From Ignavibacteriales bacterium (GTDB taxonomy: Bacteria > Bacteroidota > Ignavibacteria > Ignavibacteriales > Ignavibacteriaceae): a DNA stretch of 64,000 nt. A program made the translations under genes and the position numbers. Positions 39,037 to 45,036 of this stretch are shown one piece after another (position 1 is the stretch's first letter; the number at the start of each line of letters is the position of its first letter). The notes below the pieces were generated by a model. The model ran no database searches and was not told the origin of the DNA. It saw only the letters and a list, made by a program, of their open reading frames with translations. The stretch is taken from positions 1,407 to 65,406 of the forward strand of contig JBBQSH010000001.1 of NCBI GenBank assembly GCA_038214015.1, read 5' to 3'.

Positions 39037-40692
39037 TTATGTCTGTATCACACCCGGATTAAACTTAGATATTTCTGGATTGTTATTAGCAACTTCCAAA
39101 CACATTGAAATCAATTCGCGAGTTTGTGAGGGATTTATAATCTCATCAATCCATAATCTTGCGGCAGCGTAAAGTGGTATACTTTTTTCATCATAAGATT
39201 TTTGAATATCATGCAGAAGTTTCTTTTTATCCTCATCGCTGAATTTATGTCCGCTCTTTTCTTCCTGCTTTAATTTAATATCCATTAAAACACTGCTTGC
39301 CTGATTACCACCCATAACAGAAATTTTTGCGTTTGGATAAGCAAAGATAAAACGTGGATCATAAGCTTTACCGCACATTGCATAATTACCTGCACCAAAA
39401 CTATTTCCTGTTATTATAGTTATTTTTGGTACAACAGAATTTGCCACAGCATTTACCATCTTTGCACCGTCTTTAATTATACCACCATGTTCAGCTTTAC
39501 TGCCAACCATAAAACCAGTTACATCTTGCAAAAATAAAAGTGGAATTTTTTTCTGGTTACAATTCATAATAAATCTTGTTGCTTTATCCGCGGAGTCAGA
39601 ATAGATAACCCCGCCAACTTGCATTTCGCCAAGCTCAGTTTTTACAACGCTTCTCTGATTAGCCACGATACCAACAGCCCAGCCATCAATTCTTGCGTAA
39701 GCAGTGATTATAGTTTTACCATAGCCAGCCTTGTACTCATCGATCTCAGAATTATCAACAATGCGAGAAATCAATTCATAAGTATCATAAGGTTTTAAAG
39801 TATCTTCAGGTAAGATTCCAAGAATCTCTTTTGTTGGATATTTAGGTAATTTACTTTCTGATCTATCAAATCCTGCGTTTTGTTTCTTTCCAAACTTCTC
39901 AACCAAACTTCTTATTTGTGCAATACACTCTTCATCATTTTTCATTATATAATCTGTAACGCCGGAAATATTTGATTGCACTTTTGCACCGCCAAGTTTT
40001 TCATTATCAATCACTTCACCAATTGCAGCGCGAACAAGATGAGAGCCGGCAAGAAAAACTGAGCCTTCACCTTCAACAATTAATGCTTCATCACTCATAA
40101 TTGGAAGATAGGCTCCACCAGCAACGCAGGGTCCCATAATTGCAGCTATTTGAGGAATACCCATAGAAGACATTTTAGCATTGTTGCGAAAGATTCTTCC
40201 AAAATGTTCTTTATCAGGAAAAATATCTTCCTGAAGAGGAAGGAAAACTCCAGCACTATCAACCAAATAAATTATTGGGATGTGATTTTCCATTGCAATT
40301 TCCTGTGCGCGCAAATTCTTTTTTGCAGTGATAGGAAACCATGCGCCAGCTTTTACAGTTGCATCATTTGCAACGATGACGCAATCACGGTTGTGTATTT
40401 TCCCAATTCCATAAAGGGTGCCCGATGAAGGAGCGCCGCCATATTCTTCATACATTCCGTAAGCGGCAAAAGTACTTAATTCATAAAACTTTTTGGAATC
40501 ATCAACAAGTAAATTAATTCTTTCACGTGCGGTTAATTTACCTTTAGCTTTATGTTTTTCAATTGCTTTCTTTCCGCCGCCCTCCTTTACTTTTTCTTTT
40601 ATTGCTTCAAGCTTACGAAGTAACTCTTTTTGATAATCCTCTCGTTTTAAAAAGGTTTCATTCTCTTGTTTAGGTGATCCAATTGATTTCAT
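39037..40692 (-). CDS. acyl-CoA carboxylase carboxyltransferase (beta) subunit, methylcrotonyl-CoA carboxylase-like
   Basis: KLTARERINLL, DATVKAGAWFP, FPDKEHFGRIFRNNAKMSSMGIPQIAAIMGPCVAGGAYLP. I chose the ATG at 40692 (MKSIGSPK); the track extends to the GTG at 40731. Confidence 0.85.
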   Translation of the reverse strand: MKSIGSPKQENETFLKREDYQKELLRKLEAIKEKVKEGGGKKAIEKHKAKGKLTARERINLLVDDSKKFYELSTFAAYGMYEEYGGAPSSGTLYGIGKIHNRDCVIVANDATVKAGAWFPITAKKNLRAQEIAMENHIPIIYLVDSAGVFLPLQEDIFPDKEHFGRIFRNNAKMSSMGIPQIAAIMGPCVAGGAYLPIMSDEALIVEGEGSVFLAGSHLVRAAIGEVIDNEKLGGAKVQSNISGVTDYIMKNDEECIAQIRSLVEKFGKKQNAGFDRSESKLPKYPTKEILGILPEDTLKPYDTYELISRIVDNSEIDEYKAGYGKTIITAYARIDGWAVGIVANQRSVVKTELGEMQVGGVIYSDSADKATRFIMNCNQKKIPLLFLQDVTGFMVGSKAEHGGIIKDGAKMVNAVANSVVPKITIITGNSFGAGNYAMCGKAYDPRFIFAYPNAKISVMGGNQASSVLMDIKLKQEEKSGHKFSDEDKKKLLHDIQKSYDEKSIPLYAAARLWIDEIINPSQTRELISMCLEVANNNPEISKFNPGVIQT

Positions 40693-40730
40693 AGTATTGC
40701 CTTTATTTAGAGAATTGATATTATTGCCCA

Positions 40731-40742
40731 CAAATATATTTG
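40731..40742. promoter_or_regulatory. 12-bp perfect palindrome CAAATATATTTG carrying TAnnTTTG on both strands in a divergent intergenic region
   Basis: TATATTTG reads on the plus strand at 40735-40742 and on the minus strand at 40738-40731. It lies 38 nt upstream of the carboxyltransferase ATG at 40692. Confidence 0.3.
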
Positions 40743-40912
40743 TTTACAATTATAAAAAGTAATTATTTACCATTTTCTTTCTTAGATAATATGTTTTTTA
40801 GAATGGTATAATTTTAATCATTTTTTTGTTCTTACAATTTATACTATCTTAAAATAGCAAAACATTTTAATTGAATTTATCAATAGTAAACTAAAAGAAC
40901 GTTTTAGGTTAT

Positions 40913-40993
40913 ATGATGTTATTCCAAAAAATATATATTTCCACAGATTTTTCATTTACACTACATTGTTGTTGCCCGCATTGTTGCTGTTAG
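40913..40993 (+). CDS. 26-codon Cys-rich upstream ORF, candidate cysteine-responsive leader peptide of cysE-cysK
   Basis: My own translation gives MMLFQKIYISTDFSFTLHCCCPHCCC*. AGGT lies 3-6 nt upstream of the tandem ATGs, and the stop is 82 nt before the cysE ATG. Confidence 0.5.
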   Translation: MMLFQKIYISTDFSFTLHCCCPHCCC

Positions 40994-41075
40994 AACTTTA
41001 TTAGAGTCTAACCATTTTCAATTTATTTCATTAGTCCAATAAATAATACATTAAAGAAATTATAAAAAGTATATT

Positions 41076-41933
41076 ATGATTTATTCAAAAGAAAAAAGTT
41101 ATTTAGATTTTGCAGAAAAACTATTGAGCAAAAGAGAAACTCATTTATGCAGTTCTTCATTAAAAAAAAATTCAATCGATTTTTTAAATGAATTAATAGA
41201 TTTTCTGTTTCCACACTTTTCAAGTCGCGATTATATTTCGAAAGAAGATGTTATTGCAAAATTACAACTGCTTGAAAGAAATCTTACTTCGCTCTTGAAA
41301 AACGTTGTTGAACTGCAAGATGCTGAACTTAAAAATATCACTGAGAAGTTTTTATCAATGCTTCCTGTAATCCATGATAGATTGTGGCAAGATGCTGAAG
41401 AAATTCACAATGGAGATCCAGCAGCAGAAAGCATAGATGAAGTTATTCTTGCTTATCCCGGATTTATAGCAATCACAATCTATCGAATAGCTCACGAGCT
41501 TTACAGTCTTAAAGTACCAATTATACCACGAATATTTACAGAACGTGCTCACGAGAAAACAGGAATAGATATTCATCCGGGAGCTCAGATCGATACTCCA
41601 TTCTTTATCGATCATGGAACTGGAATTGTAATTGGTGAAACAACAAAAATCGGCAAGCATGTAAAAATATATCAAGGTGTTACACTAGGGGCTTTAAGTG
41701 TAGATAAAACATTAGCTGATACAAAAAGACATCCAACCATTGAAGATGAAGTTATATTATATTCTCAGGCAGTAATACTTGGGGGAAAAACAACAATTGG
41801 GAAAAATAGTGTAATAGGAGGTAATGCCTGGATAACACAAAGCATTCCTCCCAATTCAATTGTTACCAGTACAATGGAAGTAAAAGTACGCTCATCAAAT
41901 GATAGATTAGACATAATTGACTTTTCAATATAA
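41076..41933 (+). CDS. cysE: serine O-acetyltransferase (long form)
   Basis: GDPAAESIDEVILAYPGF, GIDIHPGAQIDTPFFIDHGTGIVIGETT, and a hexapeptide-repeat C-terminus. Confidence 0.88.
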   Translation: MIYSKEKSYLDFAEKLLSKRETHLCSSSLKKNSIDFLNELIDFLFPHFSSRDYISKEDVIAKLQLLERNLTSLLKNVVELQDAELKNITEKFLSMLPVIHDRLWQDAEEIHNGDPAAESIDEVILAYPGFIAITIYRIAHELYSLKVPIIPRIFTERAHEKTGIDIHPGAQIDTPFFIDHGTGIVIGETTKIGKHVKIYQGVTLGALSVDKTLADTKRHPTIEDEVILYSQAVILGGKTTIGKNSVIGGNAWITQSIPPNSIVTSTMEVKVRSSNDRLDIIDFSI

Positions 41934-42860: not shown

Positions 42861-42871
42861 TCATTTAAAAA

Positions 42872-42892
42872 CCCCTTCCTTTTGGGAAGGGG
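42872..42892. terminator. bidirectional Rho-independent terminator (cysK / acyl-CoA dehydrogenase convergent pair)
   Basis: CCCCTTCC-TTTTG-GGAAGGGG is flanked by A5 upstream (a T-run for the minus-strand gene) and TT-rich sequence downstream. Confidence 0.8.
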
Positions 42893-42898
42893 TTGGGG

Positions 42899-44059
42899 TT
42901 AGGTTTCCTTTAACAAATCTCTTGCGATAACAATTCTTTGAATTTCTGATGTGCCTTCTCCAATTGTAAGAAGTTTTACATCACGATAAAATTTTTCAAC
43001 AGGATATTCTTTTATAAAACCATATCCGCCAAAAATTTGTACAGCTTCACTTGCTGCTTTTTCCGCAATTTCACTAGCAAAAAGTTTTGCTTCTGCAGCT
43101 TCTTTTGTGTTTGGAATCCCAGCATCCTTCATAGCCGCAGCACGATATGTTAACAATCTTGCAGCTTCAATATTTGTTGCCATCTCAGCAAATTTAAACT
43201 GTATTGCCTGAAAATTAAAAAGTTGTGTGTTAAACTGTTTACGTTCTTGAGAATATTTTAATGCAGCATCAAGTGCGCCTTGAGCTAATCCAACACTATT
43301 TGCAGCAATTGAAATTCTTCCGCCTTCCAAAACTTTCATAGAATTAATAAATCCCATTCCTTCTTCACCTAAAAGATTTTCTGCTGGAACTTTGCAATTT
43401 TCAAAAGCTAGTTGCGTTGTATCGCTGGCTCGCATTCCAAGTTTATTTTCTTTCTTACCAATTATCAAACCTTCCATTCCTTTTTCTAGAATGAATGCTG
43501 ATATTCCTTTTTTGCCAGCTTCTTTATTTGTTATAGCCATAACAACATAAGTTTCACCAACAGTACCGTGAGTTGTAAACTGCTTACTTCCATTTAAAAT
43601 ATAATGATTACCGTTTTTTACAGCGGTACTTAATAATCCGGCAGCATCACTTCCTGAAGAAGATTCTGTTAAACCCCATGCGCCAATTTTCTTTCCGCTT
43701 GCAAGATCAGGTAAATATTTTTTCTTCTGTGAATCATTACCAAAAAGATTTATATGATTCGTGCAAAGTCCATTATGCGCAGCAACAGAAAGCCCAACAG
43801 AAGGATCGATTTTTGAAAGTTCTTCTATGATCAACGCATATTCTACGTATCCTAAACCTGCACCACCGAATTCTTCAGGAACAAGAATACCAAGGAATCC
43901 AAGTTCGCCAAGCTGCTTCATTATTTCCATTGGAAATTTTTGTGCTTCATCATATTCCATAATAAAGGGACGAATACTTTTTTCTGCAAATTCTTTTATT
44001 GTGTTGCGAATGATGATTTGGTTTTCTGTTAGTTCAGTTAAAAATGGTGCTTGTTCCAT
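42899..44059 (-). CDS. acyl-CoA dehydrogenase (short/branched-chain type)
   Basis: GAWGLTESSSGSDA and QIFGGYGFIKEYPVEKFYRDVKLLTIGEGTSEIQR (catalytic Glu context). 386 aa. Confidence 0.88.
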   Translation of the reverse strand: MEQAPFLTELTENQIIIRNTIKEFAEKSIRPFIMEYDEAQKFPMEIMKQLGELGFLGILVPEEFGGAGLGYVEYALIIEELSKIDPSVGLSVAAHNGLCTNHINLFGNDSQKKKYLPDLASGKKIGAWGLTESSSGSDAAGLLSTAVKNGNHYILNGSKQFTTHGTVGETYVVMAITNKEAGKKGISAFILEKGMEGLIIGKKENKLGMRASDTTQLAFENCKVPAENLLGEEGMGFINSMKVLEGGRISIAANSVGLAQGALDAALKYSQERKQFNTQLFNFQAIQFKFAEMATNIEAARLLTYRAAAMKDAGIPNTKEAAEAKLFASEIAEKAASEAVQIFGGYGFIKEYPVEKFYRDVKLLTIGEGTSEIQRIVIARDLLKET

Positions 44060-44082: not shown

Positions 44083-45036
44083 TTAAATTCTGTTTTTAAA
44101 TTCTTCAATTATTTCTTCAGCAATCTGGTAAGGTGAAAGATTGCCTAAGATTACTTTTTGTAAAGATAAATTTAGGGAATTTTCACCAGTCTCACTCCAC
44201 AGTTCATCTTTTAATTTATGCTCAACAATTTCTTTAATTCTAACTTTTGCTTGTGTCTCTCTTTTTTGAACAAAAAGATTTTTTTCTCTCATAAAAAATT
44301 TGTGTCGATCAATTTCAGTTGCAATATCATCAACACCCTTATTTTCTGAAGCAACTGCTTTAATGATATTTGGTAACCATGAATTTGCATCGTGATCTTT
44401 TATCATAAGTATAGTTTGAAGTGCGGTGTAAGCTTGCTGCGAACCAGGACGGTCGCTTTTATTCAGCACAAAGAAATCTGCAATCTCCATCAAACCGGCT
44501 TTCATTGCCTGAACTGAATCACCACTTTCCGGAACAAGTACCACGATTGTTGTATCAGCAGCTTGAGCAATATCAAGCTCAGACTGTCCGACTCCAACTG
44601 TTTCGAGCAATATTAAATCAAATCCTGCCGCATCCAAAACGTCAGCCGCATCAATTGCTTTTTTTGATAAACCCCCAAGGCTGCCACGAGTAGCCATACT
44701 GCGAATAAAAACTCCATCGTCCATTCCGATGTCTGTCATTCTAACTCTATCGCCAAGCAGTGCGCCGCCGGTAAATGGAGAAGTTGGGTCAACTGCGATT
44801 ATTCCAACTTTTTTATTTTGCTTTCTAAAATGTTTTGTAAGTTGATTTGTAATGGTGCTTTTGCCCGCTCCCGGAGGTCCGGTAATTCCAATACGATATG
44901 CATTGCCAACTTGTTTGTGAATTTCTTTTAAATACTCCGATGCTGAAAAATTATCTGATTCGATGATAGAAATAGCTCGTGCGATTGATCTTCTATCTTC
45001 TTTATAAATTTTTTCAATCAGAATATTATCAATCAT
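44083..45036 (-). CDS. meaB: methylmalonyl-CoA mutase-associated GTPase
   Basis: GPPGAGKST P-loop, ETVGVGQSE, NKSD. ArgK/MeaB family length. Confidence 0.88.
   Translation of the reverse strand: MIDNILIEKIYKEDRRSIARAISIIESDNFSASEYLKEIHKQVGNAYRIGITGPPGAGKSTITNQLTKHFRKQNKKVGIIAVDPTSPFTGGALLGDRVRMTDIGMDDGVFIRSMATRGSLGGLSKKAIDAADVLDAAGFDLILLETVGVGQSELDIAQAADTTIVVLVPESGDSVQAMKAGLMEIADFFVLNKSDRPGSQQAYTALQTILMIKDHDANSWLPNIIKAVASENKGVDDIATEIDRHKFFMREKNLFVQKRETQAKVRIKEIVEHKLKDELWSETGENSLNLSLQKVILGNLSPYQIAEEIIEEFKNRI

Follow-up and report, generated by a model that had tools for sequence, protein, structure and literature searches.

Classical leader-peptide transcription attenuators control the trp, his, leu, thr and ilv operons of Proteobacteria, and leader open reading frames (ORFs) can also control Rho-dependent termination, as in tnaC of Escherichia coli and mgtL/mgtA of Salmonella. 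For cysteine, the T-box leader of cysE-cysS in Bacillus ties cysE expression to the charging of tRNA-Cys via the 5' leader RNA; T-boxes bind the tRNA directly, and no translation is needed. Here we analyse a stretch of 64,000 nucleotides (nt) from an Ignavibacteriales bacterium (assembly GCA_038214015.1, contig JBBQSH010000001.1), referred to as a whole as the window. It contains a 26-codon ORF which ends in a run of Cys codons and lies directly upstream of the genes for serine O-acetyltransferase (cysE) and cysteine synthase (cysK). This is probably a cysteine-sensing leader ORF controlling cysE-cysK, as judged from sequence comparison; for the step that couples sensing to expression, several candidates are compared.

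Cysteine-specific leader peptides have so far been tested only in mycobacteria. In Mycobacterium smegmatis, polycysteine leaderless short ORFs (Ms5788A and five other loci) are experimentally cysteine-responsive (Canestrari et al. 2020, bioRxiv 10.1101/834739). The ORF of the window resembles them as a short upstream ORF with a Cys-codon run at its 3' end, placed before cysteine-metabolism genes and followed by no intrinsic terminator, and the proposed sensor is likewise the ribosome, stalling when charged tRNA-Cys is limiting. However, in mycobacteria the ORFs are leaderless, with a Cys tract that pairs to the Shine-Dalgarno region of the gene behind it, whereas in the window a 5' leader of about 90 nt is predicted (on weak evidence), a conserved Shine-Dalgarno site is missing and the pairing test was negative. 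Polycysteine leaders of the Fibrobacteres-Chlorobi-Bacteroidetes (FCB) group clearly originated independently of those in mycobacteria. Terminator-less Cys leader peptides have also been predicted before cys/cbs operons of Mycobacterium, Propionibacterium acnes and Bifidobacterium longum, with a run close to the stop; for these, Rho-dependent termination was proposed by analogy with tna (Seliverstov et al. 2005, PMC1262725). Those are G+C-rich leaders from Actinobacteria, whereas the window belongs to an FCB-group genome with 33% G+C and the operon is cysE-cysK.

Little is known about the regulation of cysteine synthesis in Bacteroidota and Ignavibacteria. Attenuation by leader peptides has been noted for his and ilv in Flavobacterium psychrophilum, not for cysteine (PMC9723704). 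In the literature covered by full-text searches, Cys leader ORFs are not described for Bacteroidota or Ignavibacteria, though there may be an earlier description. As in the classical attenuators, the leader ORF of the window is rich in codons for the end-product and lies directly upstream of a biosynthetic operon; unlike them, it has neither a terminator nor an antiterminator alternative. Since the regulatory codons abut the stop codon, the position of the ribosome cannot choose between two RNA folds.

A short ORF with a run of Cys codons precedes cysE-cysK

A preliminary description of this DNA had placed the leader ORF at 40913-40993 and had considered its Cys content unlikely to be due to chance. 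Re-translation reproduced the location and reading exactly (Table 1). Cys occupies six of the final eight codons (40967-40990), while the long ORFs of the window, which has a G+C content of 32.7%, contain only 0.70% Cys. Six Cys in eight residues is the highest value found in all six frames of the window; the other stretches with at least four Cys in eight residues all lie inside long ORFs, in an alternative frame or on the wrong strand. When the approximately 7 kb of intergenic DNA in the window was searched for short ORFs (at least six amino acids), 202 were found. The maximal number of Cys per eight residues was 0 in 146 of these, 1 in 46, 2 in eight and 3 in one; the value of 6 was reached by the leader ORF alone. 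It is the sole Cys-rich short ORF in the intergenic DNA of the window.

The arrangement of the following genes, also part of the preliminary description, was confirmed by coordinates and profile matches: the leader's stop codon (40991-40993) is separated by 82 nt from the ATG of the acetyltransferase gene (41076), and the gene for cysteine synthase starts 15 nt past cysE. The cysE-cysK pairing is kept in relatives. The closest homologues of the acetyltransferase are from metagenome-assembled genomes of Ignavibacteriales and Ignavibacteriaceae. An AGGT patch had been pointed out upstream of the two ATGs of the leader ORF. It is present in the window, but the corresponding sequence is AGCT in L161 and L162, whose acetyltransferases are 93% identical, and thus it is not a conserved Shine-Dalgarno or ribosome-binding site. 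Only 13 of the 46 genes in the window are preceded by a Shine-Dalgarno-like 4-mer.

Table 1. Positions of the leader, its RNA elements and the cysE-cysK genes in the window
Feature	Position	Strand	Basis
Candidate sigma-70-like promoter (TAGATA, 18-nt spacer, TATAAT, extended -10 TG)	40783-40812	+	Consensus scan only, 10/12 matches
AGGT patch 5' of the two ATGs	40906-40909	+	Read in the window; AGCT in L161 and L162
Leader ORF, 26 codons, translation MMLFQKIYISTDFSFTLHCCCPHCCC	40913-40993	+	Read and translated from the window
Cys-codon tract TGT TGT TGC CCG CAT TGT TGC TGT (CCCPHCCC), presumed sensing element	40967-40990	+	Translation, Cys density, conservation
Hairpin GUUAGA-A-CUUU/AGAG-UCUAAC; 5' arm includes the last Cys codon and the UAG stop	40989-41012	+	RNA folding
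A+U-rich, G-poor spacer, 82 nt, leader stop to acetyltransferase ATG	40994-41075	+	C 9, G 5
U-rich stretch UUUUCAAUUUAUUUCAU, beginning 2 nt past the hairpin	41015-41031	+	Read from the sequence
Weak all-A/U hairpin AAAUUAUAA/UUAUGAUUU covering the acetyltransferase start codon	41057-41082	+	Minimum free energy (MFE) and centroid folds; no comparative support
Serine O-acetyltransferase gene (cysE/EpsC type), 285 amino acids, presumed first regulated gene	41076-41933	+	NF041874, 164.8 bits, cut-off 150
Cysteine synthase A gene cysK, 303 amino acids	41949-42860	+	TIGR01139, 412 bits, cut-off 351
GC-rich hairpin CCCCUUCC/GGAAGGGG at the operon end, between the convergent cysK and acyl-CoA dehydrogenase genes	42870-42894		Hairpin analysis

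Transcription from the candidate promoter would begin near 40820, which leaves about 90 nt up to the leader ORF. The TGGTATAAT element is kept in L162 and reads TACAAT in L161. Promoter-like sites are no more frequent in this region than in shuffled sequences, as judged by a consensus scan.

A convincing terminator/antiterminator pair had not been recognized in the preliminary description. In agreement with this, no intrinsic terminator was found on the plus strand of the window leader, either by consensus scan or by a hairpin-plus-U search, and folding revealed no mutually exclusive antiterminator; the leader as a whole is less structured than shuffled sequences (z +1.37) and the Cys run abuts the stop codon. 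The weak hairpin with T-rich sequence that had been placed near 41002-41030 does exist, but its position is 40989-41012. It has 10 bp with one bulge and only three G-C pairs, and an energy of -6.2 kcal/mol (42-nt window), which is the 1.5th percentile of local intergenic 42-nt windows. Five U are found within the 8 nt that begin 2 nt past the stem. Taken together, hairpin and U-rich stretch would be no more than a weak terminator-like site, and the consensus scan for terminators did not report it.

This differs from the end of the operon, where the hairpin at 42870-42894 is far stronger. It had been described as a strong terminator after cysK. The GC-rich hairpin is indeed there, but the minus strand is the one with the better U-tract (the plus side reads AAAA), and the hairpin is shared with the convergent gene. 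It looks like a common terminator of the convergent genes, active in both directions, and probably serves mainly the acyl-CoA dehydrogenase gene. As strong GC hairpins are evidently used at gene ends, their absence from the leader is meaningful.

A search of the whole window against the curated RNA families of Rfam 15 gave no match at gathering score, so that neither a T-box nor any other known family is recognized on the leader; even with E-values up to 10, nothing meaningful was found in the region 40700-41150. There was likewise no match on any leader of 12 related loci.

Cys-run ORFs are frequent upstream of acetyltransferase genes

Related loci were collected from three sources: a genome collection (L001-L080; at least 80 matches listed, mostly from Bacteroidota, with about 50% identity), a metagenome collection (L081-L160) and look-ups with the exact protein (L161-L179). 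The close relatives come from the latter two. We screened up to 350 nt upstream of each acetyltransferase gene for short ORFs on the strand of the gene with a start codon, at least five codons and at least four Cys in six residues. Such an ORF is present in 22 of 157 usable loci (55 kb of upstream sequence). None was found on the opposite strand of the same regions (0/157), and none in about 104 kb strand-length of other intergenic DNA from the same loci. With a looser cut-off (at least three Cys in six residues), the numbers are 24 and 3 for 151 loci.

The reading frame of the Cys codons is preferentially open. Upstream of the tract, its median open length is 29 codons, compared with nine codons for the other two frames (19 loci; Mann-Whitney P = 2e-5). 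An in-frame ATG precedes the tract in 17 of 19 Cys frames and in 6 of 38 other frames. The ATG contrast is partly due to selection, as a start codon and at least five codons had been demanded in the screen, but this does not apply to the length contrast.

Relatives with 65-93% identical acetyltransferase have upstream ORFs of about 24-36 codons (one start is uncertain). Their N-termini are unrelated, while all of them end with CCC to CCCCCC, located 0-3 codons from the stop. The closest, L161 (93%), encodes MLLQKIYIFKDLSFTQRCCCPHCCC, with one ATG fewer than the window; this in-frame 3-nt indel at the start of the leader ORF, seen in both L161 and L162, leaves the frame open. The peptides end with CRMPLCCCCC in L163/L164 (75%), with HCEMCICCC and CICCCC in L172 and L173 (74%), with NCCCCCC in L085/L176 (69-70%), and with forms ranging from CCCC to CCCCCIPA in L089-L095 (66-70%). 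L170 (75%) encodes MLKKESNTKTDLLRNLFCKMPLCCCCC, and L175 (72%) MFPKNLNIISALIRNVFCNIPACCCL, the end of which is NIPACCCL.

Between the window and its 93% relatives, the 27 nt of tract and stop are 100% identical, compared with 81% for the ORF body and 78% for the spacer. In three close pairs, the Cys tract is 100% identical, the ORF body only 74-81%, and the 5' coding region of cysE 86-93%. The ORF body is no better conserved than the flanking non-coding DNA and falls below the coding sequence of cysE. Conservation is confined to the Cys run and the open frame; neither the peptide nor a duplicated DNA unit is retained. The comparison which the preliminary description had proposed, asking whether a Cys-rich short ORF rather than the nucleotide sequence is conserved upstream of cysE/cysK, thus came out in favour of the ORF. 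The CCCPHCCC of the window, when compared with CCCCC-stop-HIVNCPHYF in the same frame of L163, appears to have arisen by an in-frame 21-nt indel with subsequent gain of new Cys codons, which explains the seemingly duplicated unit in the window.

Two further observations concern changes of the tract and its frame. Contigs from two sister samples, L172 (around 921-941) and L173 (around 724-744), are otherwise identical but differ by one TGT (CICCC versus CICCCC before the stop); within populations, the sensing codons may be adjusted in number by slippage of the TGY repeat. In L168 and L169, from two independent samples, a Cys tract (ACCCL before the stop) without an in-frame start is found about 160-170 nt upstream of the gene, which starts at 1501. 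L175, from the same lineage, has an intact leader (ATG TTT CCA AAA...), and L168/L169 appear to represent a decaying leader.

Two leader architectures

The Cys-run leaders fall into two types. The Bacteroidota type was found in L006 (Lewinellaceae), L024 (Saprospiraceae), L025 and L036 (Bacteroidales), L044 (Tenuifilaceae), L070 (Flavobacterium) and L042, and less clearly in L008 and L078. In this type, the ORF mostly extends for 12-15 codons past the Cys run (3 in L042, 0 in L008), and a strong G+C-rich hairpin with a U-run precedes the gene (-11 to -28 kcal/mol; with -8.8 kcal/mol, that of L008 is weaker). The terminator is strong in eight Bacteroidota loci.

The Ignavibacteria type comprises the window, L161-164, L170, L172/173, L175, L085/L176 and L089-L095. 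Here, the run is located 0-3 codons from the stop in 13/13 loci and the gap to the ATG is 46-94 nt. A hairpin-plus-U search detected no terminator in any of the 12 loci of this type that were screened.

To six Bacteroidota leaders (L006, L024, L025, L036, L044 and L070), we applied RNA folding with the footprint of a ribosome masked. If the ribosome occupies the Cys run before the terminator's 3' arm has been synthesized, an upstream segment pairs in all six leaders with 8-13 of the 10-14 nt that make up the 5' arm, with energies of -13 to -32 kcal/mol. Once the mask reaches to the stop codon, five of the six leaders lose most of these pairs; the exception is L070, in which 9 of 14 nt are still paired. 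As modelled, the Bacteroidota leaders follow the terminator/antiterminator logic of trp, so that the Cys run before cysE would be used there as a cysteine sensor. These six relatives fit the classical family in full, with both terminator and antiterminator.

Complete Cys-run attenuators, 60-190 nt upstream of the acetyltransferase gene, were seen in L006, L024, L025, L036, L042, L044, L070 and L078. Judged by their sequences, Cys attenuators would be spread across Bacteroidales, Flavobacteriales, Chitinophagales and Saprospiraceae. L036 and L044 share a common peptide, CC(P/T)CCCQ..WPQ, the codons of which form the antiterminator strand. No match in Rfam was found for these attenuators.

A model for the Ignavibacteria-type leader

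In the proposed mechanism, the leader would be transcribed together with cysE-cysK and ribosomes would translate the 26-codon ORF. With charged tRNA-Cys plentiful, they would pass the six Cys codons, terminate at the UAG and leave. After their departure, the RNA at and just past the stop codon would be free, and expression of cysE-cysK would be kept low. When cysteine is scarce, the lead ribosome would stall on the terminal Cys codons, followers might queue over the short ORF, and the lasting occupancy of its 3' end would relieve the block on cysE-cysK. With the Cys run directly adjoining the stop codon, ribosomes would be found at nearly the same position whether starved or fed, so that the read-out would be the time of occupancy and not the stopping place. 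The stalled ribosome may mask an element that lowers expression, and the nature of this coupling may differ between lineages.

Several points weigh against this interpretation. Translation of the leader ORF, its co-transcription with cysE and the response to cysteine are all inferred. Relatives as close as those with the ORF are devoid of it (L081, L082, L084, L086-088, L166 and L174), and a 1-nt deletion interrupts it in L168 and L169, where the start reads ATG TTT TAA. As several close relatives have no ORF or a broken one, the leader is dispensable and often lost. The promoter upstream of the leader was assigned by consensus match only, and a promoter within the spacer is also conceivable.

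The first-ranked candidate for what is masked is Rho entry within the G-poor leader and spacer, or gating by occupancy, although we favour it only tentatively. As with tnaC, the stall site is beside the stop codon, and the held ribosome would gate the loading of Rho on the adjoining unstructured, G-poor RNA. Unlike in tnaC, the signal would be starvation for an amino acid and not an inducer in the exit tunnel. The spacers of the 13 Ignavibacteria-type loci contain 14.2% C and 6.5% G, with C exceeding G in 13/13, whereas the same region has 10.2% C and 10.3% G in relatives without the ORF (Fisher P = 0.001); for the ORF bodies, the values are 23.5% C and 11.0% G. The G-poor spacer weakly hints at Rho. 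On the other side, the excess of C over G in the window is only +5 over 169 nt, which is the 35th percentile of windows; its spacer has 11% C (9/82 nt), and the 13 loci represent about nine independent lineages. Judged as a Rho site, the C>G 'bubble' is not extreme against the full set of windows at each locus, and that of the window itself is weak. Compared with tnaC and mgtL/mgtA, the spacer is A+U-rich, and a role of Rho here is hypothetical.

Alternative explanations

A weak intrinsic terminator or processing site, masked by the ribosome, is ranked second and is rather unlikely. It would consist of the hairpin at 40989-41012 and the U-rich tract close behind its stem, and a ribosome stalled on the last three Cys codons would cover the 5' arm. 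The low percentile of this hairpin agrees with such a function, as do the C-to-U and G-to-A changes in L161, which retains the hairpin with its pairing preserved. In L163 and L170, the stop codon is not homologous to that of the window, yet it too carries a hairpin, of another sequence (GUUAAC/GUUAAC; 3.8th and 10th percentile); this suggests that a hairpin overlapping the stop was selected for independently. Nothing comparable, however, is found in eight other loci of the Ignavibacteria type, and as a group-wide trait the hairpin is unsupported (median percentile 0.61, Fisher P = 0.24, mean shuffle z -0.65); it is clade-specific. Besides the weak energy and the lack of generality, the timing is awkward: a ribosome waiting or terminating at the stop codon would mask the same arm as a starved one, and a stall at the first CCC (40967-40975) would leave the arm free. 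Ranked third, and distinctly improbable for the window, is translational attenuation of the mycobacterial type, in which the UGY-repeat Cys tract pairs with the initiation region of cysE and the stalled ribosome opens the duplex. Such pairing is the sole mechanism dissected experimentally for a polycysteine leader (10.1101/834739). It would suit L085/L176, with 97-100% conservation of tract and spacer and a strong duplex between tract and start region (-13.7 kcal/mol, z -2.6), and AACAAU-like motifs complementary to UUGUU are located 20-30 nt before the ATG in L163, L175, L089, L090 and L091. This motif, however, is also present in L084, which has no leader ORF, and the z-scores for tract pairing scatter around zero in 10 loci. 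The best duplex of the window tract with 40994-41095 has only -4.6 kcal/mol, weaker than those of 300 dinucleotide shuffles (-6.8 +/- 1.8, z +1.2), and is weaker for the cysE start than for all 46 other gene starts of the window. Pairing of the tract with the start is also absent from the MFE and centroid folds of the full window leader. Finally, the stalled ribosome may mask something else, for example an element acting on mRNA stability.

Other explanations dispense with sensing by the ribosome altogether. Chance, or a functionless (TGT)n simple-sequence repeat, is already disfavoured and has hardly any probability left. (TGY)n tracts are prone to slippage, as the one-TGT difference between L172 and L173 illustrates, and the element is missing from several close relatives. 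Yet all 22 matches lie upstream of the acetyltransferase gene on its own strand, and it is the Cys frame of the repeat, not its Val or Leu frame, which is open and has the ATG. The preliminary description had itself considered two alternatives. One was that a transcription factor binds the duplicated CATTGTTG(T/C)TG unit as a direct-repeat DNA site, the ORF being incidental. The 11-nt unit does occur twice in the window, 15 nt apart, and is identical in the 93% relatives, but in relatives at 65-75% identity the Cys tract is single and unbroken, and a second unit is missing. Moreover, the tract varies between T and C at the third codon position and the upstream frame is open, neither of which a DNA site would need; we consider this explanation very improbable. 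The other was a functional Cys-rich micropeptide, for example one that binds metals or is redox-active. Its C-terminal CCCPHCCC might in principle bind metals, and some leader peptides, peTrpL among them, act in trans. However, apart from the Cys run, neither sequence nor charge nor exact length of the peptide is conserved, its body diverges as fast as flanking non-coding DNA, and Cys counts range from 3 to 6, differing even from sample to sample. The Bacteroidota run forms part of the RNA logic of an attenuator. A micropeptide is thus scarcely more probable than a DNA site, and both were rejected on comparative grounds.

Two loci deserve separate mention. In L085 (868-927) and L176 (approximately 1441-1500), the spacers are 97% identical although the ORF bodies are only 74% identical. 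Within this spacer, GUUACACC can pair with the Shine-Dalgarno-like GGUGAUAAC just before the ATG. According to the predicted pairing, coupling in L085/L176 may be translational, unlike in the window.

Significance of the probable cysteine leaders in the FCB group

A cysteine-sensing leader ORF, our preferred interpretation for the window, would mean that the solution known from mycobacteria arose independently in the FCB group, and in two architectures upstream of one gene. The principle is familiar; of interest are its phylum-wide occurrence, the coexistence of the two architectures and the unexplained read-out in Ignavibacteria. The Bacteroidota form is a textbook attenuator, ready for annotation and modelling. 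The Ignavibacteria form, without any of the classical RNA components, offers a compact natural case of presumed control by a stalled ribosome that does not involve a terminator switch, and with about 300 nt the leader is a small construct on which models based on Rho and on structure can be compared. As a speculation, the Ignavibacteria-type leaders could represent a distinct class of terminator-less attenuators, in which occupancy time is read via Rho loading or by other hairpin-free means, and ribosomal sensing of tRNA-Cys could be a main, so far unrecognized, control of cysteine synthesis in Bacteroidota and Ignavibacteria. In practical terms, a Cys-run ORF may serve as a marker for cysteine-controlled genes in uncultured genomes, and the leader is a candidate cysteine-responsive part for genetic tools in Bacteroidota.

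Genomic neighbourhood

The cysE-cysK genes of the window are situated amid three genes of a propionyl/methylmalonyl-CoA type cluster, each on the minus strand: a carboxyltransferase (39037-40731), an acyl-CoA dehydrogenase (42899-44059) and a MeaB GTPase (44083-45036). This gene order is kept in L163, but not in L172, L174 or L176. In L164, L168 and L175, the carboxyltransferase and dehydrogenase neighbours are retained within the DNA that was fetched. In L089, the region 1756-2163, about 140 nt upstream of the Cys leader ORF, matches the cspA thermoregulator of Rfam barely at gathering score (78.7 versus 78 bits); this probably belongs to a neighbouring cold-shock gene.

A perfect 14-bp palindrome, ACAAATATATTTGT, is located at 40730-40743, where the leader and the divergent carboxyltransferase gene are separated. 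It may be an operator or promoter element of one of the divergent transcription units. Its core, ACAAATATATTT, is invariant in an alignment of the window with L161, L162 and L163, and is also visible in L164, L168, L170 and L175.

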